Numbered from the stretch's first letter, positions 3,033-55,284 are shown. The stretch is DNA of 64,000 bases from Pinibacter soli (GCF_029961145.1 NZ_JASBRG010000007.1:598155-662154), one strand, 5' to 3'. A program made the numbers and translations. The notes: a model not told the origin generated them from the sequence alone.

Positions 3033-3138
3033 TGTTTGTTTTATTTATTAATTCAAAATTCAAAAGTTAAAAGCCAAAATGTTGACCGCCTTGCAGCGAA
3101 ACACAGTTTTTGACTTCTTAATTTTTACTTTTTACTTT

Positions 3139-3603
3139 TTACTTTTTCTTTTCCACTTCTACTTCAAAAACCAACTCATGCTCCTGCGTGCCTTTCGTAT
3201 TTGCAGTTACATAAAGGGTTTTGTGTTGCATGCCGGATTTTCCTTCACTATTGAAAGAAGCTTTGATCAAACCTTCTGCTCCCGGAGCGATTGGCTCTTT
3301 CGGAGGGTCTGCCACTGTACAACCGCAGCTCGGCTGAACGCGTGAAATGACCAAAGGTTTGTCTCCTGTATTTTTAAAAGCGAAGCTTACATCCAGTTTT
3401 TGACCTTCTGTAATTTTGTCAAATTTCTTGTCCTGTTCTTTCCACTCTATAGTAGTAAACATCGCAGAATCCATTTTCAATGGGCCATTTTGTTTCATTC
3501 CGCCGGTCATATCGTGAGAGTGTGCCTCTTTCGATTTACAACCAACAGCCAGTAAGGTACAAACTGACATTATTAGCAAATAACGCATGGTGTTTTTTTG
3601 CAA
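3139..3603 (-). CDS. DUF1573-domain lipoprotein
   Basis: Signal peptide plus lipobox (LLAVGCKS) and PLVISRVQPSCGCTV, typical of DUF1573. The nusB/DUF1573/yajC neighbourhood is conserved in Bacteroidetes. Confidence 0.7.
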   Translation of the reverse strand: MQKNTMRYLLIMSVCTLLAVGCKSKEAHSHDMTGGMKQNGPLKMDSAMFTTIEWKEQDKKFDKITEGQKLDVSFAFKNTGDKPLVISRVQPSCGCTVADPPKEPIAPGAEGLIKASFNSEGKSGMQHKTLYVTANTKGTQEHELVFEVEVEKKK

Positions 3604-3626
3604 ATGTAATGGATTTGATTTTTCAA

Positions 3627-4550
3627 CTACTTCTTGAAGTTGACTTTGTGTAATTTGTTTTCCTTCACCAGATCTTTGTGAATATTGTCCAAAATACCGT
3701 TCACAAACTGGCCGCTTTGCGGGGTGCTGTATTCTTTCGCCAGGTCAATGTATTCATTGATTGTTACTTTGGCAGGAATGGTTTCAAAATACAAAAGTTC
3801 GCACACGCCCATCTGCATCATGATCATGTCCAAAGTGGCGATACGCTCAGGGTCCCAGTTCTTTAATTTTGGCGTGATAAGATCCATCGTCACGTCTTTT
3901 TTATCCAGAACAGTTTCGGTCAGACTCTTGGCATATTGCCATTTATCTTTCGAGAGCATTTCCTGAAAATTAAATGAACCAGGTTTTTGTATATAACTCA
4001 TAACTAGCATGTTGATCATATCACAATCATCATCCCAGTTGGAGAAAATCTCTTCTAAATGATCTGTATACGCTTCGTTTGGAAGCAATAAATCGCTGAA
4101 AATAAATTGCAGTATTTCTTTTTCAGACTTTGTTTGTCTGCCTTCTGCGTGAATATATTGTTGGTATTCCGGTTTTTCAACCAGCTCGAGGTAGAATTTG
4201 CGTACCACATTTTTATCCAGCATTGCAGCGATCATGTCTTCACTCAGTGCCTTTTGGTAGCTACTGTCCTCAATAATTTTCCAGATGATTTCGTTGCCCG
4301 CCAGCTTGGTATTTACATTCATGTCCTCTGCTGAAGGCAAATGTTTAGAAGCTTTTTGGTGAGCGTCTATTTCAGCATATCGCGCAAGTTCTGACAGGAA
4401 ATGGATGTTGTAAACTAATAATTGTCTCGTTAAATCAAATTGCTTTTGGAGTAGCCTCGCTGCTTCGCCGGGTTTAAGATCCTGATCTTTAGTATCTATC
4501 ACATAAAGCGTCTGCATGACTTTTACCCGGATATTTCTTCTACTGATCAT
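3627..4550 (-). CDS. nusB: Transcription antitermination factor NusB, long Bacteroidetes form
   Basis: MISRRNIRVKVMQTLYV... NusB N-terminal signature. The 307 aa length is typical of Bacteroidetes NusB. Confidence 0.8.
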   Translation of the reverse strand: MISRRNIRVKVMQTLYVIDTKDQDLKPGEAARLLQKQFDLTRQLLVYNIHFLSELARYAEIDAHQKASKHLPSAEDMNVNTKLAGNEIIWKIIEDSSYQKALSEDMIAAMLDKNVVRKFYLELVEKPEYQQYIHAEGRQTKSEKEILQFIFSDLLLPNEAYTDHLEEIFSNWDDDCDMINMLVMSYIQKPGSFNFQEMLSKDKWQYAKSLTETVLDKKDVTMDLITPKLKNWDPERIATLDMIMMQMGVCELLYFETIPAKVTINEYIDLAKEYSTPQSGQFVNGILDNIHKDLVKENKLHKVNFKK

Positions 4551-4600
4551 ATGCTGTAAGAACTATTTGAACGCGCAAAGCTAAGGCATAAAAGGCATAA

Positions 4601-4781
4601 TTTGAAAATGTGAAAATATGAAAATGTGAAAATGCTGAAAGTCCGATATTCATTATCCATGCTTGTACCCACACTATCATTTAATAATGACACCAAAGAA
4701 TAACCGCCATCTGAAGAAAATGACCAGCCTTCAGAATTTTCACATTTCTCACATTTTCATATTTCCACATTAACAGCAGGT
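4601..4781. repeat. Inverted arrays of the TGAAAAT(G/A) octamer flanking about 100 bp, in the nusB-groES divergent intergenic
   Basis: 4601-4637 reads tttgaaaatgtgaaaatatgaaaatgtgaaaatgctgaa. 4740-4781 reads tcagaattttcacatttctcacattttcatatttccacat. The two are reverse complements of each other with a few mismatches. Confidence 0.6.
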
Positions 4782-4950
4782 GCCAAAATTTCACATTCCC
4801 AAGTGCCTTTCCCACCCACAGAACTGCCAACTCTTCTTTTTTCCAACATTTTGAACCTATTGGCACGTAATTCGTTTAGTTTTGTGCCGAACCAAAAAAC
4901 AGGGCTAAACGGGCCCTTTGTAATAGTTTATCTATAAAAACACAAACATT

Positions 4951-5232
4951 ATGGCTAAGAAGCTAAGCATTACTCCTTTGCACGACAGAGTTGTTGTAAA
5001 ACCAGCTCCTGCTGAAGAAAAAACTGCCGGCGGCATCATTATCCCTGACACAGCGAAAGAAAAACCACAACGCGGAACCGTAGTGGCTGCGGGTCCTGGT
5101 AAAAAAGACGAGCCTGTAACTGTAAAAGTTGGCGATACTGTTTTGTATGGCAAATACGCAGGTACAGAATTGAGCGTGGAAGGTAATGACTACCTGATTA
5201 TGAGAGAGAGTGACATTTTGGCCATCGTTTAA
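4951..5232 (+). CDS. groES: Co-chaperonin GroES
   Basis: [50 protein letters not shown] is a canonical GroES sequence. Confidence 0.95.
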
Positions 5233-5255
5233 ACGATGCCCAAAAAATTGAAAAT

Positions 5256-5395
5256 GTGCTAATATGTAAATTTGAAAATGCTTTCTGTGTATCATTCCGG
5301 ATTCGTTCAAAGCTTCTCGAATTTCCAAAGCAATTTCAAATCATCTCGCACCTCAATTTTCAAATCTTCAAATTAAAAATTTTCAAATTACAAAT
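5256..5395. repeat. TGAAAAT/TTTCAAA repeat tract between groES and groEL
   Basis: Contains gaaaatgtgctaatatgtaaatttgaaaatgc, and further on ttttcaaatcttcaaattaaaaattttcaaattacaaat just before the groEL ATG. It carries the ATTAGCA-ATTTTCAA motif shared with the repeats that flank the RAYT. Confidence 0.5.
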
Positions 5396-7033: not shown

Positions 7034-7057
7034 GATTTACAGATTTGATTTTCATAT

Positions 7058-7312: not shown

Positions 7313-8107
7313 ATGGAATGCCTAAACTGCAACAATCAATTACCAGACAAAGGATTTTTTTGCCCGACCTGCTCGAATCAATTTAAGTGCAAAAGTTGCG
7401 ATGGATTACTGCTAAAAGATGCAAAAGTTTGTATCTTTTGTGGAGAACAAGTAAATGGAAATAAATCCACCATTTCGAACACCAACACTATAGAATTTTC
7501 AGAAACAGAAAACTCCAGAACGTTCAAAGCAAACTTCACAGATACAGTCGGTCAAAGTATAAGCGACTCCTTTGGAATGTTTATAATGAATAAAATTACT
7601 AGTAAAAAGCCAGCGACTTTAGGGCAACCCAAAAGCTACCCCAATAATAGACTGGATTTAAGTGAACAGGAAGAAGCAGAGATTATTGAAGAACCTTCTG
7701 ACACATTAGAATTAAGACAACTGAAAAGTATTTTTAAATCTGATGGTGACAAAACAACATTATCAGAAACTCGATTAAAAGCTACATCAAAAAGAGATTA
7801 TGGAATAAGACTCTCCATAATATTCCTTTATTATAAACTCGTATTAGGCACTGAAAACGTACCAAGAAAAGAACTCACAGCTATTTTAGACAATGCAAGT
7901 GTGGAAGATGGCAACTTACGATATTGGCTCACAAACAACCCATTAATTGGAGTGTCTGGAGACTTAGTCGAGTTAAAAGCCCCCGGGAAAGATGCTGCAA
8001 AAAAATATTTGTCAGAAATAGCTAATAAAGAACTAAAGGACAAATGGCAGATTGGCACCTATTCAAAGGTATCAAGAAAACCAAAGGAGAAAAAAGATAA
8101 AAAATGA
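7313..8107 (+). CDS. Double zinc-ribbon domain protein, function unknown; first gene of a two-gene cassette
   Basis: N-terminus carries CxxC pairs (CLNC...CPTC...CKSC...CIFC). Then comes an S/T/E-rich linker and an uncharacterised C-terminal domain of about 100 aa. The stop overlaps the downstream start by 4 bp (ATGA at 8104-8107). Local base composition is clearly more AT-rich than the flanking groEL and RAYT regions. Confidence 0.6.
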   Translation: MECLNCNNQLPDKGFFCPTCSNQFKCKSCDGLLLKDAKVCIFCGEQVNGNKSTISNTNTIEFSETENSRTFKANFTDTVGQSISDSFGMFIMNKITSKKPATLGQPKSYPNNRLDLSEQEEAEIIEEPSDTLELRQLKSIFKSDGDKTTLSETRLKATSKRDYGIRLSIIFLYYKLVLGTENVPRKELTAILDNASVEDGNLRYWLTNNPLIGVSGDLVELKAPGKDAAKKYLSEIANKELKDKWQIGTYSKVSRKPKEKKDKK

Positions 8108-8898
8108 GTGATTTCTTTAATGAATTCTGTGATATCGCCAAAATATCCGGAAAACCTAAGTTTGAGGTTGTTTTAGCATTTGTTTGGTTTAACCAATATA
8201 AAACTAAACAGCATGATATCTCAATGAAGCAAATTAATCAATACTTTGTGGATGCGCATTTATCTGCCTATAATCCGACGTATTTAAAGCGAGACCTCAA
8301 CAAAAGTTCTAAAATCACAAAAGGTACGCAGAGAGACACCTACAAACTTAATAGGAAAACACTTGATGAGTTAAATAAAATCTATTTGCCGCAAATCGAG
8401 ACCGAGGTCTCATTAACGGAGCGGGCAAACATTAAAGTCACCCCGTTTTTAAAATCAGCAGATATAGACGATGCCAAAAAAATGGCCGAATTGTATATAA
8501 TTCTACATTGTTTAGAAAATTCCGTGAGAAATTTTATAGATGATGTGCTAACAAAAAAACTAGGTCCAAATTGGTGGGACACGGCTAAAAATGCTGAATT
8601 AGAAAAAAAGTTTAAAGAAAGAAAAGAAAAAGAAGCAAAAAGCAAATGGCTGAGTCCGAGAGGAAAAGCGTCAGCTCTTTTTTACATAGACTGGGGAGAT
8701 CTGGTAAAAATTATTAGAAAGTTTGAAAATGACTTTAAGCCATATATCGATGAAATGAAATTTGTCGAACTTCGACTTGAAGAATTGGAAAAGGTAAGAA
8801 ATATCATTGCTCACAACGGAGTACTACCTTCCAGTGATGACTTTGATAGGTTAATCTTGCATTTTAAAGATTGGTGCAAACAAGTTAATGAGACCTAA
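8104..8898 (+). CDS. HEPN-domain protein (Swt1-like HEPN, R-x4-H motif); putative RNase or abortive-infection effector
   Basis: The C-terminal ...ELEKVRNIIAHNGVLPSSDDFDRL contains the RN-x3-H HEPN catalytic motif. Upstream helices (MAELYIILHCLENSVRNFIDDVLTKKLGPNWWD) resemble the Swt1/Abi-type HEPN fold. Translationally coupled to 7313-8107. Confidence 0.6.
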   Translation: MSDFFNEFCDIAKISGKPKFEVVLAFVWFNQYKTKQHDISMKQINQYFVDAHLSAYNPTYLKRDLNKSSKITKGTQRDTYKLNRKTLDELNKIYLPQIETEVSLTERANIKVTPFLKSADIDDAKKMAELYIILHCLENSVRNFIDDVLTKKLGPNWWDTAKNAELEKKFKERKEKEAKSKWLSPRGKASALFYIDWGDLVKIIRKFENDFKPYIDEMKFVELRLEELEKVRNIIAHNGVLPSSDDFDRLILHFKDWCKQVNET

Positions 8899-9516: not shown

Positions 9517-9548
9517 CTTTCAAATTAGCATATTTTCAAATTTTCAAG
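9517..9548. repeat. Left copy of a roughly 28-bp direct repeat flanking the RAYT/REP module
   Basis: ctttcaaattagcatattttcaaattttcaag. Compare 10567-10596, attttcaaattagcgtattttcaatttcag. Confidence 0.6.
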
Positions 9549-9900
9549 TTTGGCTCGCAGGTGTGGCAGTCGGTAAGTTAGCGGGGCGGGTTTGTGTGCG
9601 AGGGGCGGGCGTTGGCACAGACACGCAGCGCTGCAAGGCTAAGCTGCATGTCTGCGCCAACGTGGCGACAGCGAGATCGTTCGCGGGCATTTTTGCAGGT
9701 GCAAGTTTCAAAAAAATGTCGCACGATACACACGACACGCTGCTGCACCTACACAATGTTGGCGCGGACATGCAGCCCAGCTTCCGTAGCCTGGCGTGTC
9801 TGTGCCGTGCACTTTCATCGTGGCAGCACTTTTCGCATGCATATCATAACCTATACCTATATTCGCAATTAACAATCTGCATTAGTAACCTGTGGCCAAC
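9549..9900. repeat. GC-rich cluster of imperfect palindromes (candidate REP/BIME-like cluster) directly upstream of the RAYT
   Basis: About 19-bp units in alternating orientation: gttggcacagacacgcagc (about 9612), gctgcatgtctgcgccaac (about 9640), gttggcgcggacatgcagc (about 9758), cgtgtctgtgccgtgcac (about 9800). This is a strongly GC-rich block in an AT-rich neighbourhood. Long ORFs are open in all frames here, which is typical of GC-rich non-coding DNA. Confidence 0.5.
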
Positions 9901-9930: not shown

Positions 9931-10470
9931 ATGAGTAAAAAGTACAAATTCTTAGACAACGAAAAGCCTTACTTCGTCACATTTACTGTCGTTAATTGGA
10001 TCGATCTGTTTACAAGAAATATTTACAAAGACATCTTCCTGGATACCGTTAGATATTGCCAGCAAAACAAGGATCTCGACGTATTTGCGTGGGTCATTAT
10101 GACCAATCACGTGCACATGATAGTAGGCAGCAGAGGCAATCCATTAAGTAACATTATGCGAGATTTGAAACGGCACACATCAGAGAAATTGCATATCGCC
10201 CTTGAAGCTAACAAGAGGGAAAGCAGAAGAGAATGGATGCTGTGGCTGATGATGCGTGCAGGCAGTAAAATGGGTTTAAAATTTCAGCTTTGGCAGCCGG
10301 AAAGCCATCCAATGGAATTGAGCTCTCCTTTTATTGCAAATCAAAAGCTGCATTACCTGCATCAAAATCCTGTCAAAGCCGGCTTTGTTTCAAAAGAAGA
10401 AGAATGGACGTATAGTAGTGCAGGAGATTATCATGGCCGCAAGGGATTGCTGGAGGTAATACTAATTTGA
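9931..10470 (+). CDS. REP-associated tyrosine transposase (RAYT; IS200/IS605-like HuH TnpA family)
   Basis: HuH motif VIMTNHVHMIVG. C-terminal LWQPESHPMEL...HYLHQNPVKAGFVSKEEEWTYSS parallels E. coli YafM/RayT (IWQPRFWEH...YIYINPVKHGWV..W.FSS). Single gene, about 180 aa. Confidence 0.8.
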   Translation: MSKKYKFLDNEKPYFVTFTVVNWIDLFTRNIYKDIFLDTVRYCQQNKDLDVFAWVIMTNHVHMIVGSRGNPLSNIMRDLKRHTSEKLHIALEANKRESRREWMLWLMMRAGSKMGLKFQLWQPESHPMELSSPFIANQKLHYLHQNPVKAGFVSKEEEWTYSSAGDYHGRKGLLEVILI

Positions 10471-10596: not shown

Positions 10597-10599
10597 GAT

Positions 10600-12669: not shown

Positions 12670-12697
12670 AGACAAGGCAATGCCTTGTCTCTACAGG
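12670..12697. repeat. Palindromic repeat GACAAGGCAATGCCTTGTCTCTAC, copy 3; supplies the stop codon of 12691-12900
   Basis: agacaaggcaatgccttgtctctacagg. The CTA at 12691-12693 is the reverse-complemented TAG stop of the minus-strand ORF. Confidence 0.7.
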
Positions 12698-12900
12698 ATT
12701 TCATCTTCCTCCAGTTCCTTGCCATTATAAACTGCATATTTCAATACCATTACCACCATCCATATTACCAGAAATGGAGCTAGTAAAAACATAATCATCA
12801 ACAGATTGACAGGAGTATTTTGGGCCTGTGTAAGTATGGTAAAAACCAACAAGTATAATGTTACAAACCCGGCGGCGAACTGATAATTTTTCATTACCAT
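12691..12900 (-). CDS. Small hypothetical two-TM membrane protein (69 aa)
   Basis: Two hydrophobic helices (FAAGFVTLYLLVFTILT; LMIMFLLAPFLVIWMVVMVL). Confidence 0.35.
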   Translation of the reverse strand: MVMKNYQFAAGFVTLYLLVFTILTQAQNTPVNLLMIMFLLAPFLVIWMVVMVLKYAVYNGKELEEDEIL

Positions 12901-13957: not shown

Positions 13958-14183
13958 GAGATTGCTTCGACCCATTCCCTAGACTTCAGAAATTGGTTTC
14001 CTTTTACAATCTCCATCCTCCGCGGGGTCTCGCAATGACGGCGCAACCATTTTGAGCTTTACCCAACAGCCTGTTACCTCAAAATTCGGGAATCAGCACG
14101 TCATTGCGAGCCCGAGCGGGGAATGAATGGTTGAATTATAACAAGTAAAATAAACAAACAAGAACCGGGCGAAGCAATCTCAT
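13958..14183. repeat. Nested inverted repeats forming a large potential stem-loop in a convergent intergenic
   Basis: Outer pair gagattgcttcg (13958-13969) and cgaagcaatctc (14172-14183). Inner pair ctcgcaatgacg (about 14024-14035) and cgtcattgcgag (about 14100-14111), flanking about 65 nt. Confidence 0.45.
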
Positions 14184-14219
14184 TCAAAAGAGGTGCTCTT
14201 AAGGAAACGACATTAATTC

Positions 14220-17917: not shown

Positions 17918-17955
17918 ACGACCCGTCGGCTTTCTGCTGGCGGGTCTTTTTATTT
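17918..17955 (+). terminator. Probable terminator after the asmA-family gene
   Basis: gacccgtcggctttctgctggcgggtcttttta: imperfect GC stem plus a T-run. Confidence 0.45.
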
Positions 17956-17956
17956 C

Positions 17957-18143
17957 ACGCAAAGGTGCAAAGGGAAAACAAAGGACGCAAAGGATATGAC
18001 GAATTCTGAAGAGCACTCTTGTAATCCAAAGCTTCTCAATTGTGCCTGAAACTTTTTTTATAGACGTTGCTGAGCCGAATATCAAAAATCCTTTGCGTCC
18101 TTTGTTTTCCCTTGGCGCCTTTGCGTGAAACCTTTGCATGAAA
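17957..18143. repeat. GCAAAGG-armed inverted-repeat element
   Basis: Left arm cacgcaaaggtgcaaagggaaaacaaaggacgcaaaggat. Right arm atcctttgcgtcctttgttttcccttggcgcctttgcgtg. These are reverse complements flanking about 90 bp. A related copy lies at 41321-41575. Confidence 0.65.
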
Positions 18144-18867: not shown

Positions 18868-18878
18868 GAGAGCACGCA

Positions 18879-19158
18879 GATGACGCTGATTTAGCAGATT
18901 TACGCTGATTTTTAACCGCAAAGAACGCGAAGTGGACACAAAGACAACGAAGGTATTTTACAACTTCGAACATACTTTTAAATAGCTGCGTCATAAAAAG
19001 AAAGGGAACAAAGATATCTTACAACCTTCGCTCCCTTTACCGCCTGCTATCTATTTTGCTGCCAACTTCTTTGCCCTTTGCGGTTAGAAAAAGCAACTCC
19101 TGAATGCTATTACCCAGCAAACAAAAAATCAGCTCAAATCTGCTAAATCAGCGTCATC
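18879..19158. mobile_element. MITE-like element with 23-bp perfect terminal inverted repeats
   Basis: gatgacgctgatttagcagattt (18879-18901) is the exact reverse complement of aaatctgctaaatcagcgtcatc (about 19136-19158). The pair flanks about 235 bp with no ORF and internal CAAAGG-type subrepeats (aaccgcaaag ... ctttgccctttgcggtt). Confidence 0.6.
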
Positions 19159-19173
19159 TGTGTGCAAATCGTC

Positions 19174-19803: not shown

Positions 19804-19823
19804 GATTGTTTCCTTTTTTTTAA

Positions 19824-19924
19824 ATAACTGAATAATTGAATAATTGAATGTTCATATTCGAAAAGTCTCTTCGACTTTCAACCACTCAGTTTATTCAGTC
19901 ATTCAGTTATTCAATTATTAATTC
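19824..19924. repeat. AACTGAAT/AATTGAAT-armed inverted-repeat element; overlaps the stop of 19918-20856
   Basis: Left arm aactgaataattgaataattgaatg, right arm cattcagttattcaattattaatt, around the core hairpin aaagtctcttcgacttt. Family members also at 33605-33688 and 51541-51560. Confidence 0.6.
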
Positions 19925-21242: not shown

Positions 21243-21397
21243 GATTGTTATTTTGGTTACACTATAAAGAACACTTTACAGCGCTACAAAGTTGCTGCAC
21301 GAATAAGTTACAAACATTGAACCAGAACAAGAAATGGAGGAAGGTTAAATTTAAGGAAACAAAGAAAAAGGAATTCGTTTCTGCGCAGCATCAAGAT

Positions 21398-21516
21398 TTA
21401 CCACTAAGGCACTCAGGACACTAAGCTTCACTAAGAAATACCTTATAGATGACGACTATTCAAATAATTTAACTTCCCTTAGTGAAACTTAGTGTCCTCA
21501 GTGCCTTAGTGGTAAA
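21398..21516. repeat. CACTAAG-armed inverted-repeat element
   Basis: tttaccactaaggcactcaggacactaagcttcactaag and cttagtgaaacttagtgtcctcagtgccttagtggtaaa are reverse complements around about 40 bp. Confidence 0.65.
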
Positions 21517-23057: not shown

Positions 23058-23223
23058 TTTGCGAAGATCAGAATCATTGACATCGCTATGTTTTATCAAA
23101 GCAGTTCTAATTATAGTTAATAAAGAATAATTAACAGGTGTAGCAAATAGAACGAGTGCAAACTTGCAGAAAATGCATGCTACAATCACCTTTAATCAGC
23201 AGCACAGAAAGCATTACTAATTT

Positions 23224-24075
23224 CTAATTTCTAATTCGCCTCCTCGCTGCTTCCCATCCAATCATCGCACTCTTTCTCGCACTTCCCCAATGATATTCGC
23301 CTGTTTCCCCGTTCATTCTGATTACGCGATGGCAGGGAATCAGAAATGCCACCGGGTTGCTGCCAATCGCCGAGCCTACAGCCCGTGACGCTGTTGGTGC
23401 GTCGATCAACTCTGCAATGCCTGAATATGTTTTCAATTCTCCAGCTGGTACTTTAATCAAAGCGTCCCATACTTTCAATTGAAATGCGGTGCCTTTCAGG
23501 TGCAATTTTATTTGCGACAATTTGCTCCAGTCTTGTGTAAAGATAAAAAGCGCCTGTTGCTGATTGGCGTCTACCAATTGGGAAAACTGTGCATTGGGAA
23601 AACTATTTTGCAATTCATTGAACGCCGCGCCTTGTCCATCATCCGCAAAAGCCATGTGGCAAATACCTTTTGGTGTAGATGCGACGATCATCTCACCAAA
23701 AGGCGTCTCTGCAAAACTATAATTGATTGTAAGTTCCCTCCCGCCGTTTTTAAATTCGCCCGGCGTCATCCCTTCTATTTTAATAAAAAGATCATGCAAT
23801 CTGCCTGTTCCTGAAAGTCCGGTATCGTAGGCTGTATCAATCAAAGACGATTTTGTCTCTTTCAAAATATCCTTCGCATACTCAATACTTAAATATTGTA
23901 AAAACTGCTTTGGAGTAATGCCTGCCCATTCTTTGAACATCTTTTGAAAATGAAAAGGGCTCAAATGCACATGTGCCGCTGCATCCTCAAGTGAAGGTTG
24001 CTGTTTGAAATTATCTTTATAGAAGTTGATTGCATCCGCAATTCTGTTGAAATTAATCTGCTCTTGCAATTCCAT
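23224..24075 (-). CDS. ada: Bifunctional Ada-like regulator: AraC-type HTH plus methylated-DNA-protein-cysteine methyltransferase
   Basis: AraC HTH (AAAHVHLSPFHFQKMFKEWAGITPKQFLQYL) and an MGMT active site (IPCHRVIRMNGETGEYHWG). Confidence 0.85.
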   Translation of the reverse strand: MELQEQINFNRIADAINFYKDNFKQQPSLEDAAAHVHLSPFHFQKMFKEWAGITPKQFLQYLSIEYAKDILKETKSSLIDTAYDTGLSGTGRLHDLFIKIEGMTPGEFKNGGRELTINYSFAETPFGEMIVASTPKGICHMAFADDGQGAAFNELQNSFPNAQFSQLVDANQQQALFIFTQDWSKLSQIKLHLKGTAFQLKVWDALIKVPAGELKTYSGIAELIDAPTASRAVGSAIGSNPVAFLIPCHRVIRMNGETGEYHWGSARKSAMIGWEAARRRIRN

Positions 24076-29410: not shown

Positions 29411-29413
29411 AGC

Positions 29414-29497
29414 GATGAGTGATGAGTATGTTGCGAAACTCATCACTCATCACTCATCACTCATCACTCATCACTCATTACTCATTACTCATTACTC
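29414..29497. repeat. Heptanucleotide tandem repeat (CTCATCA)x5 then (CTCATTA)x3, with a short inverted arm
   Basis: gatgagtgatgagtatg ttgcgaa actcatcactcatcactcatcactcatcactcattactcattactcattactca. The arms are asymmetric, about 2.5 versus 8 units. It lies between convergent genes. Confidence 0.75.
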
Positions 29498-33414: not shown

Positions 33415-33609
33415 ATGAAAAACGACAATAAGTTCCGGGTAAAGGATGAAAAACAGCCTACTTTACCGAATGAAGATTTTGAAGGTGAAGACAAAGCTCC
33501 TGGTGAAGAACAAGGCATGTCCGAACTAGTAACAGAACGAGATATTAAAGGCAAAAAGAACGACGGTGATCCTGAGTTAGAGAGCGATCAACCGGTGAAA
33601 CAACAATAA
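33415..33609 (+). CDS. Small acidic hypothetical protein (64 aa)
   Basis: Hydrophilic, charged ORF. Its stop TAA is overlapped by the AACTGAAT repeat arm. Weak support. Confidence 0.3.
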   Translation: MKNDNKFRVKDEKQPTLPNEDFEGEDKAPGEEQGMSELVTERDIKGKKNDGDPELESDQPVKQQ

Positions 33610-33688
33610 CTGAATAACTGATTAACTGAATAACTGAGTGGTCGAATGCTGAAGTGCATGATCGGATAGCTACCACTCAGTTATTCAA
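33605..33688. repeat. AACTGAAT-armed inverted-repeat element
   Basis: ataactgaataactgattaactgaataactgagtggt ... accactcagttattcaat. Confidence 0.6.
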
Positions 33689-37216: not shown

Positions 37217-37333
37217 GAGAATTTGAAAATTTGAAGATTTGAAAATGGTTGGTGCTAGTCTCTAACACGCCTGAGTGACTTCAGTCGGGCAGGAACTAAG
37301 AACTTCGAACCAACAACTATCAACTAATTAAAC

Positions 37334-37918
37334 ATGGAACGCATTACTCAGGTAAAAGAGATCATTCAATCATCAATTGATACAAAACAGCAAATTCTAC
37401 AGGATCAGGCAATGCTTGAAAGAATGCTGGAAGTTGTTGATGCCATCGTAAACGCATTTCAAAACGGTAAACGCATTTATTTTTGTGGAAATGGTGGTAG
37501 TGCTGCAGACGCACAACACCTCGCTGCCGAGTTCAGCGGACGTTTTTATAAAAACAGGCGAGCATTACCTGCTGAAGCACTGCATTGCAATACCTCATAC
37601 TTGACAGCCGTAGCAAATGATTACAGCTATAACGATATTTATTCTCGCCTCGTTGACGGCATCATGGTGAAAGGCGATGTATTGATCGGTCTTTCTACAT
37701 CAGGCAATTCAGCCAACATAGTAAGTGCATTTGAAGTTGCGAGAGAGAAAGGCGTCATCACCGTTGGCTTCACTGGCATTACCGGCGGCATCATGCATTC
37801 ATTAAGTGATTATTTATTCAATGTACCATCTTCCATAACACCACGCATCCAGGAAAGCCATATTACCATAGGGCATATTATTTGTGAGCTGGTGGAAGAG
37901 AAATATTTCTCAATTTGA
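37334..37918 (+). CDS. gmhA: D-sedoheptulose-7-phosphate isomerase (SIS domain)
   Basis: FCGNGGSAADAQHLAAEF...GLSTSGNSANIV are GmhA SIS motifs. Confidence 0.85.
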   Translation: MERITQVKEIIQSSIDTKQQILQDQAMLERMLEVVDAIVNAFQNGKRIYFCGNGGSAADAQHLAAEFSGRFYKNRRALPAEALHCNTSYLTAVANDYSYNDIYSRLVDGIMVKGDVLIGLSTSGNSANIVSAFEVAREKGVITVGFTGITGGIMHSLSDYLFNVPSSITPRIQESHITIGHIICELVEEKYFSI

Positions 37919-38085
37919 AAATTTGAAAATTTGAAAATTCGTTTGGTGTATCATTCATGATTTATTGTTGGCAACCCAAGAGGCTGATAATTATTGATAA
38001 CAAATGTTCGGCCTAAAGCATTTTCAAATTCTCAAATCTTCAAATTTTCAAATTGCATCTCTCATTTTCATATTTTCAAATCATG
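37913..38085. repeat. TGAAAAT/TTTCAAA repeat tract between gmhA and gmhB
   Basis: tttgaaaatttgaaaatttgaaaattcg ... gcattttcaaattctcaaatcttcaaattttcaaattgcatctctcattttcatattttcaaatc. Confidence 0.55.
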
Positions 38086-40533: not shown

Positions 40534-40603
40534 AAGGTTTGCGGTGTACGAAAGTCATTAGAAGCAACACTCTAATGACTTTCGTACACCGTAAACCTTT
40601 TTT
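40534..40603. terminator. Very long near-perfect hairpin (29-bp stem) followed by a T-run
   Basis: aaggtttgcggtgtacgaaagtcattaga-agcaacac-tctaatgactttcgtacaccgtaaacctt tttt. One G/A mismatch in 29 bp. Confidence 0.7.
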
Positions 40604-41297: not shown

Positions 41298-41320
41298 GAC
41301 CGGTTTCGTGTGCCAGAAAT

Positions 41321-41575
41321 ATTTCACGCAAAGGCGCAAAGGGTATTTTTTCGTGCGGAGAAACTGAGTTGTTTCACACAGCGAACGCAGCGAATAAGCG
41401 ACGCAAAGAGTTCGCGAACGTCGGAATGTTATTTTAGGTTTTAAACAGATTGATGTGCACCTGATAAGAAAATTGCAGACCTAAACCAACAAGCTCCTGC
41501 CGCGCCGCCGCTTCATTGCGGTGACCGCGAGAAGTCTTTGCGTCCTTTGACTTTCCTTTGCGCCTTTGCGGGAAA
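41321..41575. repeat. GCAAAGG-armed inverted-repeat element, second copy of the family
   Basis: atttcacgcaaaggcgcaaagggtat ... gtctttgcgtcctttgactttcctttgcgcctttgcggg. Confidence 0.6.
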
Positions 41576-41623
41576 TTTTGCTAACTTCAGCGCTGAAACA
41601 TCTCTGACCACAAATAACGTGAC

Positions 41624-42832
41624 ATGAAAAGCCTACCGATTTTATATACTTACACACTTACTGCTTTTGCGTTTAGTTTTATATCGTGCAACAACTCGGC
41701 AGGTAATAACTCAGGACGTTCTATTTCGGAACTAACAAAAGCAAAAGTCGATGGCGCGGTTTCATGTACAGTTAATGGTCTCACAGTTGCCGACAGCTCA
41801 ATTTACGCCAACAATGGTGGCAATGAATTCAAACCTACGGTTGTCAACACAGTTAACTTTGATGCAGCCCCTGAAGGAATGGTAAAAATTCCCGGTGGTG
41901 AATTCAGCATGGGCGGTGTGAACCCCACCGGTATGCAGGATGGTGGCCACGAAGCGATGAATGACGCAAGGCCTATTCACAGGGTGTATGTGAATCCATT
42001 TTATATGGACGAAACAGAGGTTACCAATGCAGAATATGCAAAATTTGTTGCTTCAACCAGCTATATTACGGTGGCCGAAAAAAAGCCTACAAAAGAAGAA
42101 TTTCCGGATGCACCGGAAGAAAACCTGGTGGCCGGCTCAGTTGTATTTACCCCTCCTTCTCACGAAGTTCCATTGAACGACCATTATCAATGGTGGAACT
42201 ATGTGAAAGGAGCGAATTGGAGACATCCGACAGGCCCGGATAGTGATATTAAAGGCAAGGATAATTACCCCGTGGTACAAATAGCTTACGAAGATGCCGT
42301 TGCGTATGCAAACTGGGCGGGAAAAAGATTGCCAACAGAGGCAGAGTGGGAATTTGCTGCACGAGGCGGAAAAGCGGGAGAAATGTACGCATGGGGCAAC
42401 CAGCTAAAACCAAATGATAAATGGATGGCTAATACATTCCAGGGACATTTTCCAAACAATGACCAGGGTAGCGATGGCTTTGTAGGCATTGCGCCCATTA
42501 AACAATTTTCGCCGAACATATATGGTCTTTATGATGTGGCTGGCAACGTTTGGGAATGGTGCAATGACTGGTACAGATCAGATTATTACCAAGAACTTTC
42601 CAGACAAGCCGTTACAAGAAACCCACAAGGCCCCACAACATCTTTCGATCCTTCTGAGCCAGGCACCGAAAAGAAAGTGCAAAGAGGTGGCTCTTTTCTT
42701 TGTACAGATCAATATTGCACAAGATATATGGTAGGTACTCGCGGCAAAGGCGAGTTCAGTTCTGCCAGTAATCACATTGGTTTCCGCTGCGTAAAAGACG
42801 TTTCGAAGAAAACAATGCTGGCGAAAAAATAG
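41624..42832 (+). CDS. Formylglycine-generating enzyme family protein (SUMF1/FGE-sulfatase domain)
   Basis: RVYVNPFYMDETEVTNAEY...WAGKRLPTEAEWEFAARGG...YGLYDVAGNVWEWCNDWY...RGGSF are FGE hallmarks. Confidence 0.85.
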   Translation: MKSLPILYTYTLTAFAFSFISCNNSAGNNSGRSISELTKAKVDGAVSCTVNGLTVADSSIYANNGGNEFKPTVVNTVNFDAAPEGMVKIPGGEFSMGGVNPTGMQDGGHEAMNDARPIHRVYVNPFYMDETEVTNAEYAKFVASTSYITVAEKKPTKEEFPDAPEENLVAGSVVFTPPSHEVPLNDHYQWWNYVKGANWRHPTGPDSDIKGKDNYPVVQIAYEDAVAYANWAGKRLPTEAEWEFAARGGKAGEMYAWGNQLKPNDKWMANTFQGHFPNNDQGSDGFVGIAPIKQFSPNIYGLYDVAGNVWEWCNDWYRSDYYQELSRQAVTRNPQGPTTSFDPSEPGTEKKVQRGGSFLCTDQYCTRYMVGTRGKGEFSSASNHIGFRCVKDVSKKTMLAKK

Positions 42833-43001
42833 GAATCAGGAGTGTGGAACTAGGAATTAGAAGATGCTCGAACAAGTTATTAGTTAATAATTGCTGGTTT
42901 GTAGACTTTAGAGCTGGAATTTCTGCATTTCCCTACAACTAAATACCTACTAGCCTTCTACGACGCAGTCCTCCAAACTTCTAATTCCTAACCCTAGTTT
43001 C
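42832..43001. repeat. TAATTCC/AGGAATT-armed inverted-repeat element
   Basis: ggaactaggaattagaag ... cttctaattcctaaccctagtttcc. Related arms at 23215-23240, 30505-30535 and 45447-45475. Confidence 0.5.
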
Positions 43002-43044
43002 CCCGGCATAATTTTTTCAATACAGTAGAACAAAACTTACTTGT

Positions 43045-45446: not shown

Positions 45447-45477
45447 TCAGGAGTTAGAAATTAGGAATTAAGATGGT

Positions 45478-45540
45478 GTACGATTCGTGATTCAAGTTTC
45501 TCGTCCAATTTTCAATTTTCAACTTTCAACTTTCAATTAG
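45478..45540. repeat. TTTCAA repeat tract between the MFP and RND permease genes
   Basis: caagtttctcgtccaattttcaattttcaactttcaactttcaattagattc directly upstream of the ATG at 45545. Confidence 0.5.
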
Positions 45541-48610: not shown

Positions 48611-48809
48611 TTGAAAATTGAAAATGATTCGCAGGGGCGAATTGCATTCGCACTCTTCGCATATCGCGAAACACGATTAACATTATCGCAAACGGACCAT
48701 CGTTAAATATTTTGTTTTAATTATGATGTCAGCAGTAGTACTTCTATTAAGCATTGGTTGCGTCGCACTCTTCAGCGGCAGGAAGTTGATTGAGCGTATT
48801 TTTATAAAC

Positions 48810-50126: not shown

Positions 50127-50147
50127 TTAGTGCAGCGTTCGGAAATA

Positions 50148-50279
50148 GAAATTAATAATTAACAATTAATAGGTGTAGCATCTGGATAAGAACACTGCTT
50201 AACTATGTTCGACATACAATAGGGCAACATTCTGTCGTGAATGTTGCCCTATTAATTTTTAATTATTAATTATTAATTT
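50148..50279. repeat. AATTAAT-armed element with a conserved-structure hairpin-terminator core
   Basis: Left arm gaaattaataattaacaattaatagg. Then ggtgtagca plus about 45 nt. Then a perfect hairpin agggcaacattc-tgtcgt-gaatgttgccct. Then the right arm attaatttttaattattaattattaatt. Paralogous copies at 62853-62984, 52254-52390 and 51585-51677. Confidence 0.7.
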
Positions 50280-50285
50280 CCCGCA

Positions 50286-51065: not shown

Positions 51066-51584
51066 CTGCTAGTTATTGGTTATTAGCCATCAATTTTGAC
51101 TAGCGGAGACTAAAGCAGAACAACCAACAATCCACTAAGTGTATCCCCTTAGATCCGAAAAATTTTCTTCAATAAAATTGGATTATATTATTTTGACATT
51201 TAATTTAACATATCCATAGCAGTTAGACTGCTTTTAAACCTTCTCCTTAGTTAACAAAGATGTAATACACAAACTGAACATTTCGTTGAAAGTTTCAAGA
51301 TATTTGCATTGTCAAGTTACAATATCCAATTAGAAAAAAACCAATAGTCCATTAGTCCAAAAAACCGAGTCCACGTCCAATGAACAAACAAGCATCACAA
51401 CCTTTTCTATGAAGTAATTATCCACCAATCCATGTGAAGACCAGGTAATATATCCGATCCTAGCAGTCAAGATTTATCCACCTTTATTATATTACCTAAT
51501 TTTAAAAAAGCTGTTCTAACGAACGGCTTTTTTTATTCTTAGTAACTGAATAACTGAGTTTTCAAGTCAAGATGTTCGAAAAAA

Positions 51585-51677
51585 AATTAATAATTAATAA
51601 TTAAAAATTAACAGGGCATTGTCGATTATAATTTTGAGGGCAACACTATTAATTCTTAATTATTAATTATTAATTGA
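51585..51677. repeat. AATTAAT-armed element, degenerate copy
   Basis: aaaaattaataattaataattaaaaattaacagggcattgtcg...gagggcaacactattaattcttaattattaattattaattg. Confidence 0.55.
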
Positions 51678-52253: not shown

Positions 52254-52390
52254 AAAATTAATAATTAAGAATTAAGAATTAATAGTGTGCATTCGAAATC
52301 ATAGTCGCCGTTCATGACTAGTCAAAAAAATAGGGAATCATCGAATAAACGACTGATGCCCTATTAATTTTTAATTATTAATTATTAATT
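52254..52390. repeat. AATTAAT-armed element with a bidirectional terminator hairpin
   Basis: aaaattaataattaagaattaagaattaatagtg...aaaaaaatagggaatcatcgaataaacgactgatgccctattaatttttaattattaattattaatt. Ends 4 bp before the stop of the MFS gene. Confidence 0.65.
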
Positions 52391-52393
52391 ACC

Positions 52394-53653: not shown

Positions 53654-53929
53654 GTATGCAGATTAATAGAATAAAGGGGTCAAGATAGTAAATAATGGGA
53701 AATGGGAAAAAAAAGACGATGTACGGTGCAAGAAAGCCGTCACGAGGCCGTTTTCAAAAGCATTTCGTAAATCGTATTTCGTATATCGTACTCAACAATC
53801 CACAGGCGGCTCTCTACTGCCTACCGGTAACCGGCTACTGGCTACTGACATTTGTCAACCCACCTGCCCTCAATAACCACCATCAACGATCAATTAAATC
53901 CCGTAATTTCGCCCCAGAAAAAGCTTTAC

Positions 53930-55117
53930 AAGATGATTATTACAGACTCAACAATTTCTATACAAAAGATTATAGAAGCAGAAAAAGAAAAAGCTCTTCG
54001 AAGCATTGGCGAGAAAATTATCCATAAGGAAAGAATAACCGGGGAAGAAGGCGTTTTACTTTTTGAAAAAGGGAGCCTGCCTTTTGTGGGCGCTTTGGCG
54101 AATCATGTTCGCGAAAGACTGCATGGCAATAAAACATATTTCAACCGCAATTTCCATATTGAACCAACAAACGTTTGCGTGTTCTCCTGCAAGTTCTGCT
54201 CCTACTCACGCTTGTATGCACATCGTGAAGAGGGTTGGGAACTGAGTACAGACGACATGCTGAACATCGTTAAAAAATACGATGGCAAACCGGTTACGGA
54301 AGTACACATCGTTGGTGGCGTTCACCCGAAATTGAATCTTAATTTCTTCGCAGACCTTTTGCAAAAAATAAAGGCTCATCGCCCGGACCTGCACGTAAAG
54401 GGCTTTACAGCTGTGGAGCTTGATTACATGTTCCGCAAGGCGAAAATGACGATCGACGAAGGAATGAAATTTCTTCATGAAGCAGGTTTGCAATCATTGC
54501 CGGGTGGTGGCGCAGAGATATTTGCCCCTGAGATACGCACACAGATCTGCGAGGACAAAGTTGACGCAGCGGGCTGGCTGGCTATTCATGAAGCAGCACA
54601 CAAACTGGGCATGCATTCGAATGCGACCATGTTATATGGTCACATTGAAAAATTCCATCACCGCATTGATCACATGGAAAGATTGCGCAGCCTGCAGGAC
54701 AAAACGGGTGGTTTCAACACCTTTATTCCGCTGAAGTTCCGCAATAAACAAAATGACATGAGCGATGTGCCGGAAAGCTCGGTAACGGAAGATATGAGGC
54801 TTTATGCGATTGCAAGATTATACATGGACAACTTCCCTCACCTGAAAGCATACTGGCCAATGCTGGGCCGCAAAAACGCCCAGTTAAGCCTAGCCTTCGG
54901 CGTAAACGATATCGATGGCACCATCGACGATTCTACAAAGATATATTCAATGGCAGGCAGCGAAGAGCAAACGCCTGTAATGAGCACCGCTGAAATGGTG
55001 GCGTTGATCAAACAGGTAAAACGTCAGCCTGTTGAGCGTGATACTTTATACAATGAAATCAGAGATTATTCTGACATTGATATCAAAGAGATTGAAGTAA
55101 ATCCGCTGTTGAATTAA
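53930..55117 (+). CDS. Radical SAM menaquinone-biosynthesis enzyme of the futalosine pathway (MqnE/MqnC family)
   Basis: CxxxCxxC cluster motif NVCVFSCKFCSYSR within the FO-synthase/MqnC/MqnE-like fold (VHIVGGVHP...). The ORF is open from 53852. Subtype not resolved. Confidence 0.7.
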   Translation, partial: KMIITDSTISIQKIIEAEKEKALRSIGEKIIHKERITGEEGVLLFEKGSLPFVGALANHVRERLHGNKTYFNRNFHIEPTNVCVFSCKFCSYSRLYAHREEGWELSTDDMLNIVKKYDGKPVTEVHIVGGVHPKLNLNFFADLLQKIKAHRPDLHVKGFTAVELDYMFRKAKMTIDEGMKFLHEAGLQSLPGGGAEIFAPEIRTQICEDKVDAAGWLAIHEAAHKLGMHSNATMLYGHIEKFHHRIDHMERLRSLQDKTGGFNTFIPLKFRNKQNDMSDVPESSVTEDMRLYAIARLYMDNFPHLKAYWPMLGRKNAQLSLAFGVNDIDGTIDDSTKIYSMAGSEEQTPVMSTAEMVALIKQVKRQPVERDTLYNEIRDYSDIDIKEIEVNPLLN

Positions 55118-55135
55118 AAGTAAAAAATAAAAAGT

Positions 55136-55171
55136 AAAAAGGGAGCCCGGCTTACATCGGGCTCCCTTTTT
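55136..55171 (+). terminator. Rho-independent terminator for the mqn gene
   Basis: aaaaagggagcccg-gcttacatc-gggctcccttttt. Confidence 0.75.
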
Positions 55172-55228
55172 ACTTTGAGGCTTTAAGAAAGTTTTGAGTA
55201 GTAAAACCCTCATAACGTTTATCAAATA

Positions 55229-55262
55229 AAAAAGCGTTCGATACATTTCGAACGCCTTTTTA
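55229..55262 (-). terminator. Rho-independent terminator for the 55285-57615 gene
   Basis: Minus strand: aggcgttcgaaatgtatcgaacgctttttt. Stem gcgttcga/tcgaacgc. Confidence 0.7.
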
Positions 55263-55284
55263 TTTTTTATTTTTTACTTATTCG

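Follow-up and report, generated by a model that had tools for sequence, protein, structure and literature searches.

What are the hairpins with arms of tandem 7–8-nucleotide (nt) units that stand between the genes of Pinibacter soli (Chitinophagaceae), and how do they arise? The question is raised by a stretch of 64,000 nt (41% G+C) of this bacterium, here called the window, in whose coordinates gaps and elements are given (Table 1). Among the sister loci, L001 and L122 come from P. aurantiacus (GCA_019130065.1), and L003 and L123 from Chitinophagaceae bacterium 26-R-25 (GCA_029906195.1). The class of elements is real, statistically solid and expanded in one lineage. We see about an even chance that its members are non-coding foldback repeats similar to miniature inverted-repeat transposable elements (MITEs), abundant in Pinibacter, and the counterpart of the hairpins formed by the short tandemly repeated repetitive (STRR) sequences of cyanobacteria.

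Tandem Repeats Finder (TRF) returned 65 rows in the window, nearly all with period 7 or 8. When arrays of period 6–9 with at least 2.5 copies were merged by joining overlaps, 34 of the 37 were intergenic, in a window of which 78% is open reading frame (ORF) and only 22% lies outside long ORFs. An inverted-repeat scan gave 87 pairs, and the longest of these, with arms of 30–43 nt that are 85–97% complementary and 30–210 nt apart, are visibly composed of repeated 7–8-mers. When the 46 gaps measuring 40 nt or more were scanned for hairpins with gaps allowed, a score of at least 28 was reached in 20 gaps and of at least 40 in 13, whereas six dinucleotide-preserving shuffles yielded 0–1 and 0, respectively; the hairpins are thus commoner than AT-rich composition predicts. 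RNA folding gave z values from −3 to −14.7 for nine of 11 elements. The strong hairpins with paired arms are those at 4598–4772, 5245–5389, 17953–18130, 18872–19165, 19820–19923, 21397–21516, 37911–38055, 41315–41582, 50141–50281, 51585–51675, 52256–52390, 55118–55279 and 62854–62983. The original prediction of a window-wide class in many unit families, distinct from classical repetitive extragenic palindromic (REP) sequences and bacterial interspersed mosaic elements (BIMEs), was borne out, and every block it had listed holds the units named for it according to sequence reading, TRF and the inverted-repeat scan. The claim that nearly every intergenic gap holds an element went too far: elements are common, but about half of the gaps (~20 of 46) carry an array or hairpin. 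Many of the listed items are inverted pairs, as had been claimed, but 9517–9550, 23213–23236, 30504–30534, 37217–37250 and 48611–48626 are single arrays without a partner arm. Two further items, the exceptions in the folding analysis, do have both arrays, but the arms of 45447–45540 are not complementary (TTAGGAA left, TTTCAAC right) and those of 3050–3152 pair weakly.

The two periods characterize one clade. In the window and four sister sequences, 19 period-7 and 31 period-8 arrays were found per 100 kb, compared with 3.6 and 2.0 in 1.26 Mb of other Bacteroidota (80 loci); this is an enrichment of ~5× and ~15×, respectively, and periods 6, 9 and 10 showed none in the same comparison. TRF-defined inverted array pairs number eight in the 64-kb window and three to seven per 10–20 kb in the sister sequences, against seven in the entire set of other Bacteroidota, where they occur in five of the 80 loci, three of these being Chitinophagaceae. 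In distant Chitinophagaceae, elements built in the same way are found occasionally, with units peculiar to these relatives (CTAAAAA, GTACGAA, CGTGAAA, AGCTATC and, around a terminator, ACGAATT), and Chitinophaga silvatica has GCAAAG arms around a terminator. Since these distant relatives hold only occasional elements, the class is thinly spread over Chitinophagaceae and expanded in Pinibacter; it is nearly absent from other Bacteroidota.

An element consists of an arm of 30–45 nt with an inner period of 7 or 8 nt, a core of 30–210 nt which is often a terminator or another small hairpin, and the inverted arm. More than ten unrelated unit families are present in the window, and the TGAAAAT family accounts for about a third of the elements. 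The arms deviate from pure microsatellites in that many have fixed irregularities, e.g. TGAAAATGTGCTAATTTGAAAAT or ACCACTAAG-GCACTCAG-GACACTAAG-CTTCACTAAG. Idiosyncratic arms of 30–39 nt recur at sites that are not orthologous. The irregular four-unit 39-nt CACTAAG arm was found at three unrelated gaps, namely 21397–21516, CoaE|YajC (L002, L003, L005) and MFS|radical-SAM (L122, L124). Five copies have nearly the same AATTAAT right arm, CCCTATTAATT[T/C]TTAATTATTAATTATTAATT, and the elements at 50141 and 62854 align end to end, with a common GGTGTAGCA start and an inner GC hairpin in which an A-T pair has been changed to C-G with compensation. The TGAAAAT copies in L001, L002 and L003 have cores that are 82–91% identical. 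The CACTAAG and CTCATCA families have the terminus TTTACCAC in common, and the GCAAAGG arms begin with TTTCAC. Because idiosyncratic arms are common to unrelated sites, each family represents one ancestral sequence copied around the genome and not merely one local duplication. The conserved termini that we name for the class are TTTACCAC...GTGGTAAA, TTTCACGCAAAGG and CCCTATTAATT....

No core common to all families was found among the window elements; TGAAAGTCGA-like cores are common to one subset. The motif GGTGYR, often as AGGTG[CT][AG]GCA, is found no more than ~6 nt from the left arm of six elements, which belong to three arm families (32965, 37945, 44222, 45475, 50171, 62875). Including one minus-strand copy at a right arm, seven occurrences were observed where ~0.5 were expected.

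Sixteen orthologous gaps were compared between species. The block CoaE-YajC-DUF1573-NusB/GroES-GroEL is kept in ~30 Chitinophagaceae loci, and the block h166-FGE-OmpA-MFP-RND-OEP-TauE...MFS-rSAM (radical SAM) in three sister species. Five kinds of change were seen: in unit number, in both arms in parallel, by replacement of one family by another, by insertion, absence or nesting, and by absence in other genera. The (TTGAAAA) array past the RND gene (RND|OEP) has two units in the window and L124 and five in L122 and L123, and the groES-groEL arms differ by one or two units between species. At nusB|groES, the window element has GTGAAAAT/ATTTTCAC arms and its sisters have TTTGAAAAT/ATTTTCAAA, with five of 35 pairs changed on both sides. 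The core of 41315–41582 is conserved in L122 and L124, and GCAAAGG/CCTTTGC units are present on both arms in the window only; since the sister arms lack GCAAAGG around a conserved core, both arms must have changed in parallel in the window lineage. In the CoaE|YajC element, the unit goes from CACTAAG over CACTGAG to CACAGAG, the right arm changes to match, and the stem base passes from A-T to G-C.

Replacement of whole families was found at several gaps. YajC|DUF1573 (3050–3152) carries AAAAGTA-type arrays in two species and a GTTGTTAG-unit hairpin with an unrelated core in three sister species. The element at OEP|TauE is of the AATTAAT family in the window, with GAGAGTT as the arm unit in L122 and TTGAAAA in L123 and in L124; at FGE|OmpA, the TAATTCC hairpin of the window is replaced by a REP doublet, GGGGCGAATCGCATTCGCCC, in L122 and L124; AAA|PepSY and PepSY|TonB have AACTGAAT or TAACGC hairpins. 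At MFS|rSAM, L122 and L124 have a CACTAAG element that the window and L123 lack, and in L003 a CTCTGTG-armed element is nested within a CACTAAG element. In the orthologues of 55118–55279, the terminators are kept and the arms varied, with a duplication in L123. Outside the clade, the groES-groEL spacer is just 33–54 nt long and lacks the hairpin in seven relatives, and the longer spacers of other relatives revealed no whole-spacer hairpin on folding. The two-array layout of MFP-RND is the same in four of four species. Compared with its sisters, the window is 75–92% identical at four-fold degenerate sites of groEL, nusB and yajC and 86–92% in the groES promoter, whereas orthologous element cores are 49–72% identical (arms 60–92%). 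Owing to this difference between cores and four-fold sites, the elements can be said to change faster than silent sites, while their architecture persists.

Two observations concern these same gaps. In L123 (6018–10000), a gene for a 1012-amino-acid HYR-domain protein lies between OEP and TauE, with the TTGAAAA hairpin and an AATTAAG/AATTAAT element on its two sides; elsewhere a single gap holds both. In L122 (14640–14976) and L124 (14668–15053), the stem around the inserted CACTAAG element runs outward into species-specific sequence, GCTGGA...TCCAGC in one and GTGGGCAAGA...TCTCACACCCAC in the other, which reflects either insertion into the centre of older hairpins or outward growth by inverted copying of the flanks.

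A generating mechanism that combines slippage, arm-to-arm templating and copying between sites would fit these changes. The arrays would lengthen and shorten by replication slippage in steps of 7–8 nt. Slippage, which had been suggested as the generator of all elements, does contribute (two versus five units at RND|OEP) but is insufficient alone: since irregular arms are dispersed and whole elements are exchanged at orthologous sites, copying between sites must also occur. What preserves the likeness of the two arms may be quasipalindrome correction (intrastrand template switching over the hairpin), selection for pairing, or the two together. Spread and overwriting could proceed via a trans-acting enzyme or via ectopic gene conversion seeded in the repetitive arms, presumably with a preference for gene ends and the inside of existing hairpins.

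Several results weigh against foldback, MITE-like repeats as the explanation. Neither a transposase nor an autonomous element was found to have matching ends; the only transposase near elements in the window and the sister loci is the one discussed below. No consistent target-site duplication was detected at AATTAAT or CACTAAG copies, whose flanks are AT-rich and often continue the stems. No differences inside elements were seen within species among a few near-identical samples, and no pair of the groES-groEL element is changed on both sides. Mismatches of the G.U versus the A.C type showed no bias to the transcribed strand relative to gene orientation, and because of this, RNA-level selection is not demonstrated. 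Some arrays are unpaired or non-complementary and are conserved all the same (45447–45540, in four species); pairing alone is therefore insufficient as an explanation. The comparison covers ~64 kb of window and ~140 kb of sister sequence, less than whole genomes. Finally, arrays often appear to grow from native sequence, as at the groEL leader motif and the DUF1573 stop-codon region: relatives without the groES-groEL hairpin show one TTTTCAAAT-like motif upstream of the groEL start, and in both unit families the stop codon of the DUF1573 gene is overlapped by the first unit of the array that follows it. Such native starts favour an in-situ origin of at least some arms.

Extended to all elements, this becomes a purely local origin without mobility, in which the stems of hairpins or terminators are lengthened in place, at their base and on both strands, by a 7–8-nt replication stutter with its own unit at each site. 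The sharp period of 7–8 nt, the different units at different sites, the native starts of arrays (the TTTTCAAAT motif present once where the hairpin is lacking, the DUF1573 stop context that matches the first unit), the gradual drift of the CACTAAG units at CoaE|YajC with the other arm following, the unit counts at RND|OEP and the stems running past family arms into species-specific sequence all agree with it. We nevertheless consider it unlikely, because independent origins cannot account for identical irregular arms of 30–39 nt in different species and at unrelated loci, because whole elements including their cores have been exchanged between species that are only ~10–20% diverged at silent sites, and because insertion and nesting polymorphisms are present.

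The position of the elements at gene ends invites a role at the RNA level. The strongest terminator-like sites between 44 and 64 kb coincide with element cores, and the arms form the A-rich leader and the U-rich tail. A GC-rich stem-loop followed by a U-rich tract makes up the cores of 50141–50281, 55118–55279 and 62854–62983 and is not found in TGAAAAT, GCAAAGG and CACTAAG elements; the terminator stem-loops within the AATTAAT and AAAAGTA elements lie at 50218–50253, 55131–55176 and 55234–55255. The copies claimed to lie inside operons (groES-groEL, gmhA-gmhB and MFP-RND) were confirmed. In six of 12 co-directional gene pairs, both arms end at most 17 nt from the stop and start codons, so that folding would bring the two codons together; such an approximation of stop and start by an STRR hairpin was also proposed for hupS-hupL (PMC2670836). 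The stems of 25–45 bp would lengthen terminator stems and supply U-rich tails, and the double-stranded RNA would be long enough for a processing site. In operons, the stem base would set the upstream stop beside the downstream start and could couple or gate translation in a lineage lacking Shine-Dalgarno sites. None of these RNA roles is essential at a given site, since close relatives have no element or a different one there. The idea that the arms serve to supply stop codons in all three frames was dropped: most units hold TAA, TAG or TGA in the inward direction, but about as many do so outward, and such codons are expected to be frequent in AT-rich 7-mers.

That the elements are instead conserved cis-regulatory RNA structures selected site by site, such as an RNA thermometer or a processing site between groES and groEL, is in our estimate very unlikely. 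The stable folds, some compensatory changes (nusB|groES), the stem base adjoining stop and start codons and the orientation of the GGTGYR-type cores, which are on the strand of the upstream gene in six of six cases, are in its favour. However, related genera lack the elements at these operon junctions, and the elements themselves diverge faster than silent sites, show no G.U strand bias and keep the same architecture between convergent and divergent genes. Nor is there a match to Rfam 15 at the gathering score, the long hairpins giving only meaningless sub-threshold matches to miRNA and sRNA models.

The arrays could also be multi-site landing pads for a sequence-specific RNA- or DNA-binding protein (of the cold-shock, S1 or Csr type), the hairpin being secondary. 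The cold-shock domain has a footprint of ~7 nt, which equals the array step of 7 nt. The arrays abut stop and start codons, and the non-complementary MFP-RND arrays have been kept in four species. The same had been proposed for TAACTGA repeats, which occur in Beggiatoaceae, cyanobacteria and a few Bacteroidetes; this heptamer, reported from distant phyla (PMC4679880), is contained in the AACTGAAT family. Likewise, the TTGTTAG units of L002 are also found in Nostoc (PMC2408588). We give landing pads only a slight chance, because more than ten unrelated units exist in one genome, because the unit switches at orthologous sites between sisters would be intolerable for a fixed binding specificity, because relatives lack arrays at the same genes and because the arms are usually complementary far above chance.

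Another candidate machinery stands in the window itself. The ORF 9931–10470 is a true REP-associated tyrosine transposase (RAYT; NCBIfam NF047646, 99 bits), weakly similar to TnpA-REP 4ER8, and it had been named as the possible generator of all elements, which would then be REPINs, i.e. hairpin doublets copied by this enzyme. An inverted doublet hairpin is indeed the REPIN layout. TGAAAAT copies lie on both sides of the RAYT in the window, L001 and L002, the L001 pair having cores 89% identical, and the motif AGGTGCGGCAG opens the RAYT leader as well as several element cores. The RAYT has, however, its own repeats. It has more than 1,000 homologues, many on ~1-kb contigs, and five of them (57–65% identity) are accompanied by GC-rich, inverted REP hairpins, on both sides in four and only downstream in L117; no 7–8-mer arrays flank these five. 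The same REP type (GGCGCAGATATGC...GCGTATCTGTGCC, also written GGCGCAGATATGCGGC...GCGTATCTGTGCC), which is tandemly multiplied upstream in L116, forms a doublet directly upstream of the window RAYT at 9614–9806 (GGCACAGACACGC...GCATGTCTGCGCC and an inverted copy 96 nt apart). In four of the five loci of RAYT-bearing relatives, no tandem-arm hairpin is present within 20 kb. Single arms are not palindromic and carry no GTAG or CGTC tag, while GTAG-tagged REPs exist apart from them: two types, GTAGAGACAAGGCAnTGCCTTGTCT and GTAGAGACGCATnnnATGCGTCTC, occur in the window (1756–1871, 12672–12698, 30450–30495) and in L001–L005, often as REPIN-like inverted doublets, and are dispersed in all Pinibacter-clade sequences. 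A further REP-like family with palindromic units, that of the GGGGCGAATCGCATTCGCCC doublet found at FGE|OmpA in two sisters, has a single copy past the RND gene in four of four species (window 48627–48650). More than ten unrelated unit families cannot all suit one sequence- and structure-specific enzyme, and with TGAAAAT making up about a third of the elements, flanking of the RAYT by chance is not unlikely. The proposal is largely refuted, and we leave it a very small residual probability. Because the RAYT and its homologues are flanked by GC-rich REPs, the TGAAAAT copies beside it are neighbours and ordinary family members, not substrates; in practice, a repeat beside a RAYT need not be its REP.

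The surroundings of the RAYT have some features of their own. A longer version of the GGTGYR motif, AGGTGCGGCAGTGGGTAAGTTAGCG, opens the RAYT leader (9553) and is duplicated in P. aurantiacus (L001 15175, 15372). The groEL-RAYT interval (7313–8898) is a variable island, bordered by TGAAAAT-family elements, that resembles anti-phage defence and is different in every relative (L001, L002, L003, L005). It encodes a double zinc-ribbon protein and a HEPN_Swt1/Abi-like protein in the window, TIR_2, ThsB-TIR and SLATT in P. aurantiacus, Abi_alpha in L002, a CAP12-PCTIR TIR protein in L005 and unrelated genes in L003.

The least tenable explanation, a compositional or assembly artefact of AT-rich intergenic DNA, is refuted: the arms are AT-rich and of low complexity and short-read contigs break inside them, but the shuffles gave 0–1 hairpins against 20 observed, the GC-containing families (GCAAAGG, CACTAAG, ACGCTGATTT) are 93–95% complementary over 39–43 nt, and independent NCBI, JGI, ENA and Logan assemblies contain the same elements. 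Contig ends of Logan L008, L120 and L121, independent short-read data from the same organism, fall in element arms (window 4605, 33613, 37941 and 52363), and the closest TauE relative and many RAYT homologues are on ~1-kb contigs. Repeats with 7–8-mer arms break up short-read assemblies.

For the foldback, MITE-like repeats of Pinibacter, the heptamer hairpins of STRR in heterocystous cyanobacteria are the closest described system, and the claim of an architecture unlike anything known was too strong. STRR are likewise tandem 7-nt units in several unrelated families per genome, non-coding and often located within operons (PMC2670836, PMC2408588). As in Pinibacter, oppositely oriented arrays are predicted to form a hairpin, e.g. 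in the hupS-hupL spacer and upstream of hoxW, and functions in transcript stability, termination or translational coupling were proposed (PMC2670836). TTGTTAG (L002 8089–8178; Nostoc PCC 7120, PMC2408588 Table 3) and units containing TAACTGA are found in both, a coincidence that may reflect chance, a shared constraint or transfer. The hosts belong to different phyla, Pinibacter being a member of Bacteroidota, and the units are too short to trace common descent. In Pinibacter, 8-nt units are as common as 7-nt units, the arms have fixed irregularities and conserved termini and enclose cores of 30–210 nt, and family replacement at orthologous sites is documented. To our knowledge, such replacement has not been reported for STRR.

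The elements share with REPs, BIMEs and the REPIN-RAYT system a high copy number, intergenic position and hairpin structure, with inverted doublets around a spacer (30–210 nt here) and a RAYT gene in the window. In contrast to a REP unit, which is an imperfect palindrome of 20–40 bp ending on one side in a conserved GTAG or CGTC tag, an arm here is a tandem array that does not fold on itself and has no tag, and the cognate repeats flanking the RAYT are GC-rich hairpins. Bacterial MITEs, such as Correia or NEMIS (Neisseria miniature insertion sequences) of Neisseria, Nezha of cyanobacteria, ERIC (enterobacterial repetitive intergenic consensus) and RUP (repeat unit of pneumococcus), are similar in being non-coding, 90–300 bp long and bounded by terminal inverted repeats better conserved than the core. 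They too form dispersed families in intergenic DNA and operons, show presence/absence and nesting, and may carry terminators. The Pinibacter elements differ in that no target-site duplication or parent insertion sequence was found for them in the window and the sister loci, in that their terminal repeats are internally periodic (7–8 nt) with varying unit number, and in that far more families per genome exist, with an evolution above the rate of silent sites. Long inverted arms of short tandem repeats, variable in length, are also known from the foldback (FB) transposons of Drosophila and other eukaryotes; these transposons are on the kilobase scale with arm units of 10–31 bp, and the likeness is an analogy of architecture only.

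Other repeats are less similar. The mycobacterial interspersed repetitive units (MIRUs) resemble the elements as tandem units that fill operon spacers from stop to start with a copy number variable between strains. MIRUs are direct-repeat units of 40–100 bp with short ORFs and without hairpin architecture. Clustered regularly interspaced short palindromic repeats (CRISPR) are 24–48 nt long with unique spacers of similar length, in contrast to the contiguous 7–8-nt units and inverted arms seen here. TAACTGA direct repeats (MacGregor 2015) are intergenic tandem heptamers, mostly located a short way upstream of start codons and known from a few Bacteroidetes; they are direct arrays of a single unit, with only one indirect repeat among 170 sets (PMC4679880). 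Heptamers are also the favoured class among the long simple-sequence repeats of 5–11 nt (Mrazek 2007, as summarised in PMC4679880). In Pinibacter, by contrast, TAACTGA occurs only inside the 8-nt unit AATAACTG, mostly just past stop codons and with an inverted arm, and the class is defined by inverted pairing and many units. Intrinsic terminators, bidirectional ones included, have the GC-rich stem-loop in common with the AATTAAT and AAAAGTA families, in which the arms constitute the U-rich tail and the A-rich leader. The arms, however, reach 25–40 nt beyond any terminator need, and operon-internal TGAAAAT copies have neither GC stem nor U tract. No description of such elements in Chitinophagaceae or Pinibacter was found in the literature.

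Table 1. Tandem-unit elements and arrays of the Pinibacter soli window (strand as recorded; z, RNA folding)
Position	Strand	Feature	Composition	z	Remarks
3050–3152	-	Arrays from DUF1573 stop to yajC start	(AAAAGTA)n from the stop codon, (TTTTGAA/TTTTAAC)n before the start; TRF and sequence	−1.9	
4598–4772	.	Hairpin upstream of the groES promoter	Arms (GTGAAAAT)n and (ATTTTCAC)n, 42–43 nt; 90-nt core opening GCTGAAAGTC		CATGATT-unit hairpin at this site in L003
5245–5389	+	Hairpin filling the groES-groEL spacer	Unit TGAAAAT/TTTTCAAA	−3.05	Left arm begins 13 nt past groES stop, right arm ends 6 nt before groEL ATG; in 5/5 Pinibacter-clade sequences
9517–9550	+	TGAAAAT-family right-arm remnant upstream of RAYT	TTTCAAATTAGCATATTTTCAAATTTTCAAG		Matching full copy in P. 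aurantiacus (L001 15211–15365)
10465–10596	+	TGAAAAT-family element directly past RAYT stop	Left arm degenerate		Intact in L001 and L002
17953–18130	.	GCAAAGG-family hairpin	43-nt arms, 95% complementary; opens TTTCAC		After the canonical terminator of the upstream RND-type gene
18872–19165	.	Nested element	Outer arms ACGCTGATTT-type, 42 nt, 93% complementary		Inner hairpin ~18914–19085 with GCAAAG/CGAAGG-type arms
19820–19923	-	Hairpin filling the gap of two minus-strand genes	Units AACTGAAT/AATTGAAT	−7.0	Stop codon of upstream gene inside one arm
21397–21516	.	CACTAAG-family hairpin	39-nt arms TTTACCACTAAGGCACTCAGGACACTAAGCTTCACTAAG, 95% complementary	−14.7	RNA fold −69 kcal/mol
23213–23236	.	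Single array, partner arm absent	(CTAATTT)3; TRF and sequence		
29410–29498	.	Asymmetric CTCATCA hairpin	Left ~2.5 GATGAGT units, right 8.7 ACTCATC units (TRF score 101)		Right arm is the longest array in the window
30504–30616	.	Single array 30504–30534 and arm fragment 30577–30616	TAATTCC-type array		Fragment opens TTTACCAC-TCATCAC, same terminus as CACTAAG family
32949–33353	+	Composite AATTAAT-family element	Left arm begins in upstream stop codon, then GGTGCGGCAG; right arm 33324–33353		Internal terminator with extra arm at 33119
33605–33688	+	AATAACTG-unit element	Four left units versus ~1.5 right units, then separate terminator	−5.8	
37217–37250	+	Single array directly past topoisomerase gene stop	(AATTTGAA)3		
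37911–38082	+	Hairpin filling the gmhA-gmhB spacer	Strong paired arms 37911–38055	−4.75	gmhA TGA stop is the first left-arm unit; right-arm units reach 2 nt before the likely gmhB ATG (38085)
41315–41582	+	Hairpin	GCAAAGG units on both arms; 212-nt core		
42832–43005	+	Hairpin	Units TAGGAAT/TAATTCC		Begins at FGE-sulfatase gene stop codon
44198–44318	+	Hairpin upstream of MFP gene	AAAAGTA/AAAAAAT-type		
45447–45540	+	Two-array element filling the MFP-RND spacer	(TTAGGAA)n past stop, core opening GGTGTAC, (TTTCAAC)n before ATG	+0.1	
48611–48626	+	Array directly past RND gene stop	(TTGAAAA)2, then REP-like GGGGCGAATTGCATTCGC hairpin		
50141–50281	+	AATTAAT-family element	A-rich left arm, GGTGTAGCA, spacer, GC-rich terminator hairpin 50218–50253	−7.7	U-rich tail of terminator is the right arm; ends 4 nt before TauE ATG
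51541–51675	+	Short array 51541–51560, then AATTAAT-family hairpin 51585–51675	AACTGAAT array	−7.8	
52256–52390	.	AATTAAT-family hairpin, gap of two minus-strand genes		−5.6	
53694–53847	.	Three unpaired 7-mer arrays in divergent promoter gap	AATGGGA; TCGTATA/ATTTCGTAAATCGT; CTACTGG		CTACTGG array is the right half of a CCAGTAG hairpin intact in L123
55118–55279	.	Arms around two terminator hairpins, convergent genes	AAAAGTA/TTTTTAC		
62854–62983	+	AATTAAT-family element	GGTGTAGCA start, terminator-like inner hairpin	−7.5	

Two further structures of the window are without tandem 7–8-mer units. The nested inverted repeat at 13960–14190 (outer GAGATTGCTTCG...CGAAGCAATCTC, inner GGGGTCTCGCAATGACG...CGTCATTGCGAGCCC) is not of the class and may represent another dispersed family. 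At 40534–40599, a near-perfect 29-bp stem (97% complementary) with an 8-nt loop is followed by a T run and looks like a strong terminator for the gene that has its end at 40522. No tRNA genes were detected when the window was scanned for them.

Heptamer repeats have been noted in bacteria for 35 years, as STRR, long simple-sequence repeats and TAACTGA sets, without an accepted origin or function. Pinibacter is an unusually clean comparative system in this respect, with several sister species at ~10–20% silent-site divergence and the same gaps showing unit gain, joint arm change and family swaps. It becomes testable how inverted tandem arms arise and stay complementary and whether they are mobile, and what effect stop-to-start stems of 25–45 bp have on termination, RNA processing and coupling in Bacteroidota, which do not use Shine-Dalgarno sites. 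A bolder proposal, which we regard as quite unlikely, is that hairpins of 7–8-nt units are built and rewritten at gene boundaries by a dedicated process in Pinibacter, to a lesser extent in other Chitinophagaceae and, independently, in filamentous cyanobacteria; candidates would be an activity that copies or repairs DNA with a hairpin as template, or an enzyme of an unrecognised mobile element. If this were true, these genomes would contain a self-renewing layer of foldback microsatellites with a turnover above that of silent sites and a maintained architecture. Should the stems, in addition, gate termination and the coupling of stop to start, the layer would be a fast-evolving, genome-wide operon regulator in bacteria without Shine-Dalgarno sites.

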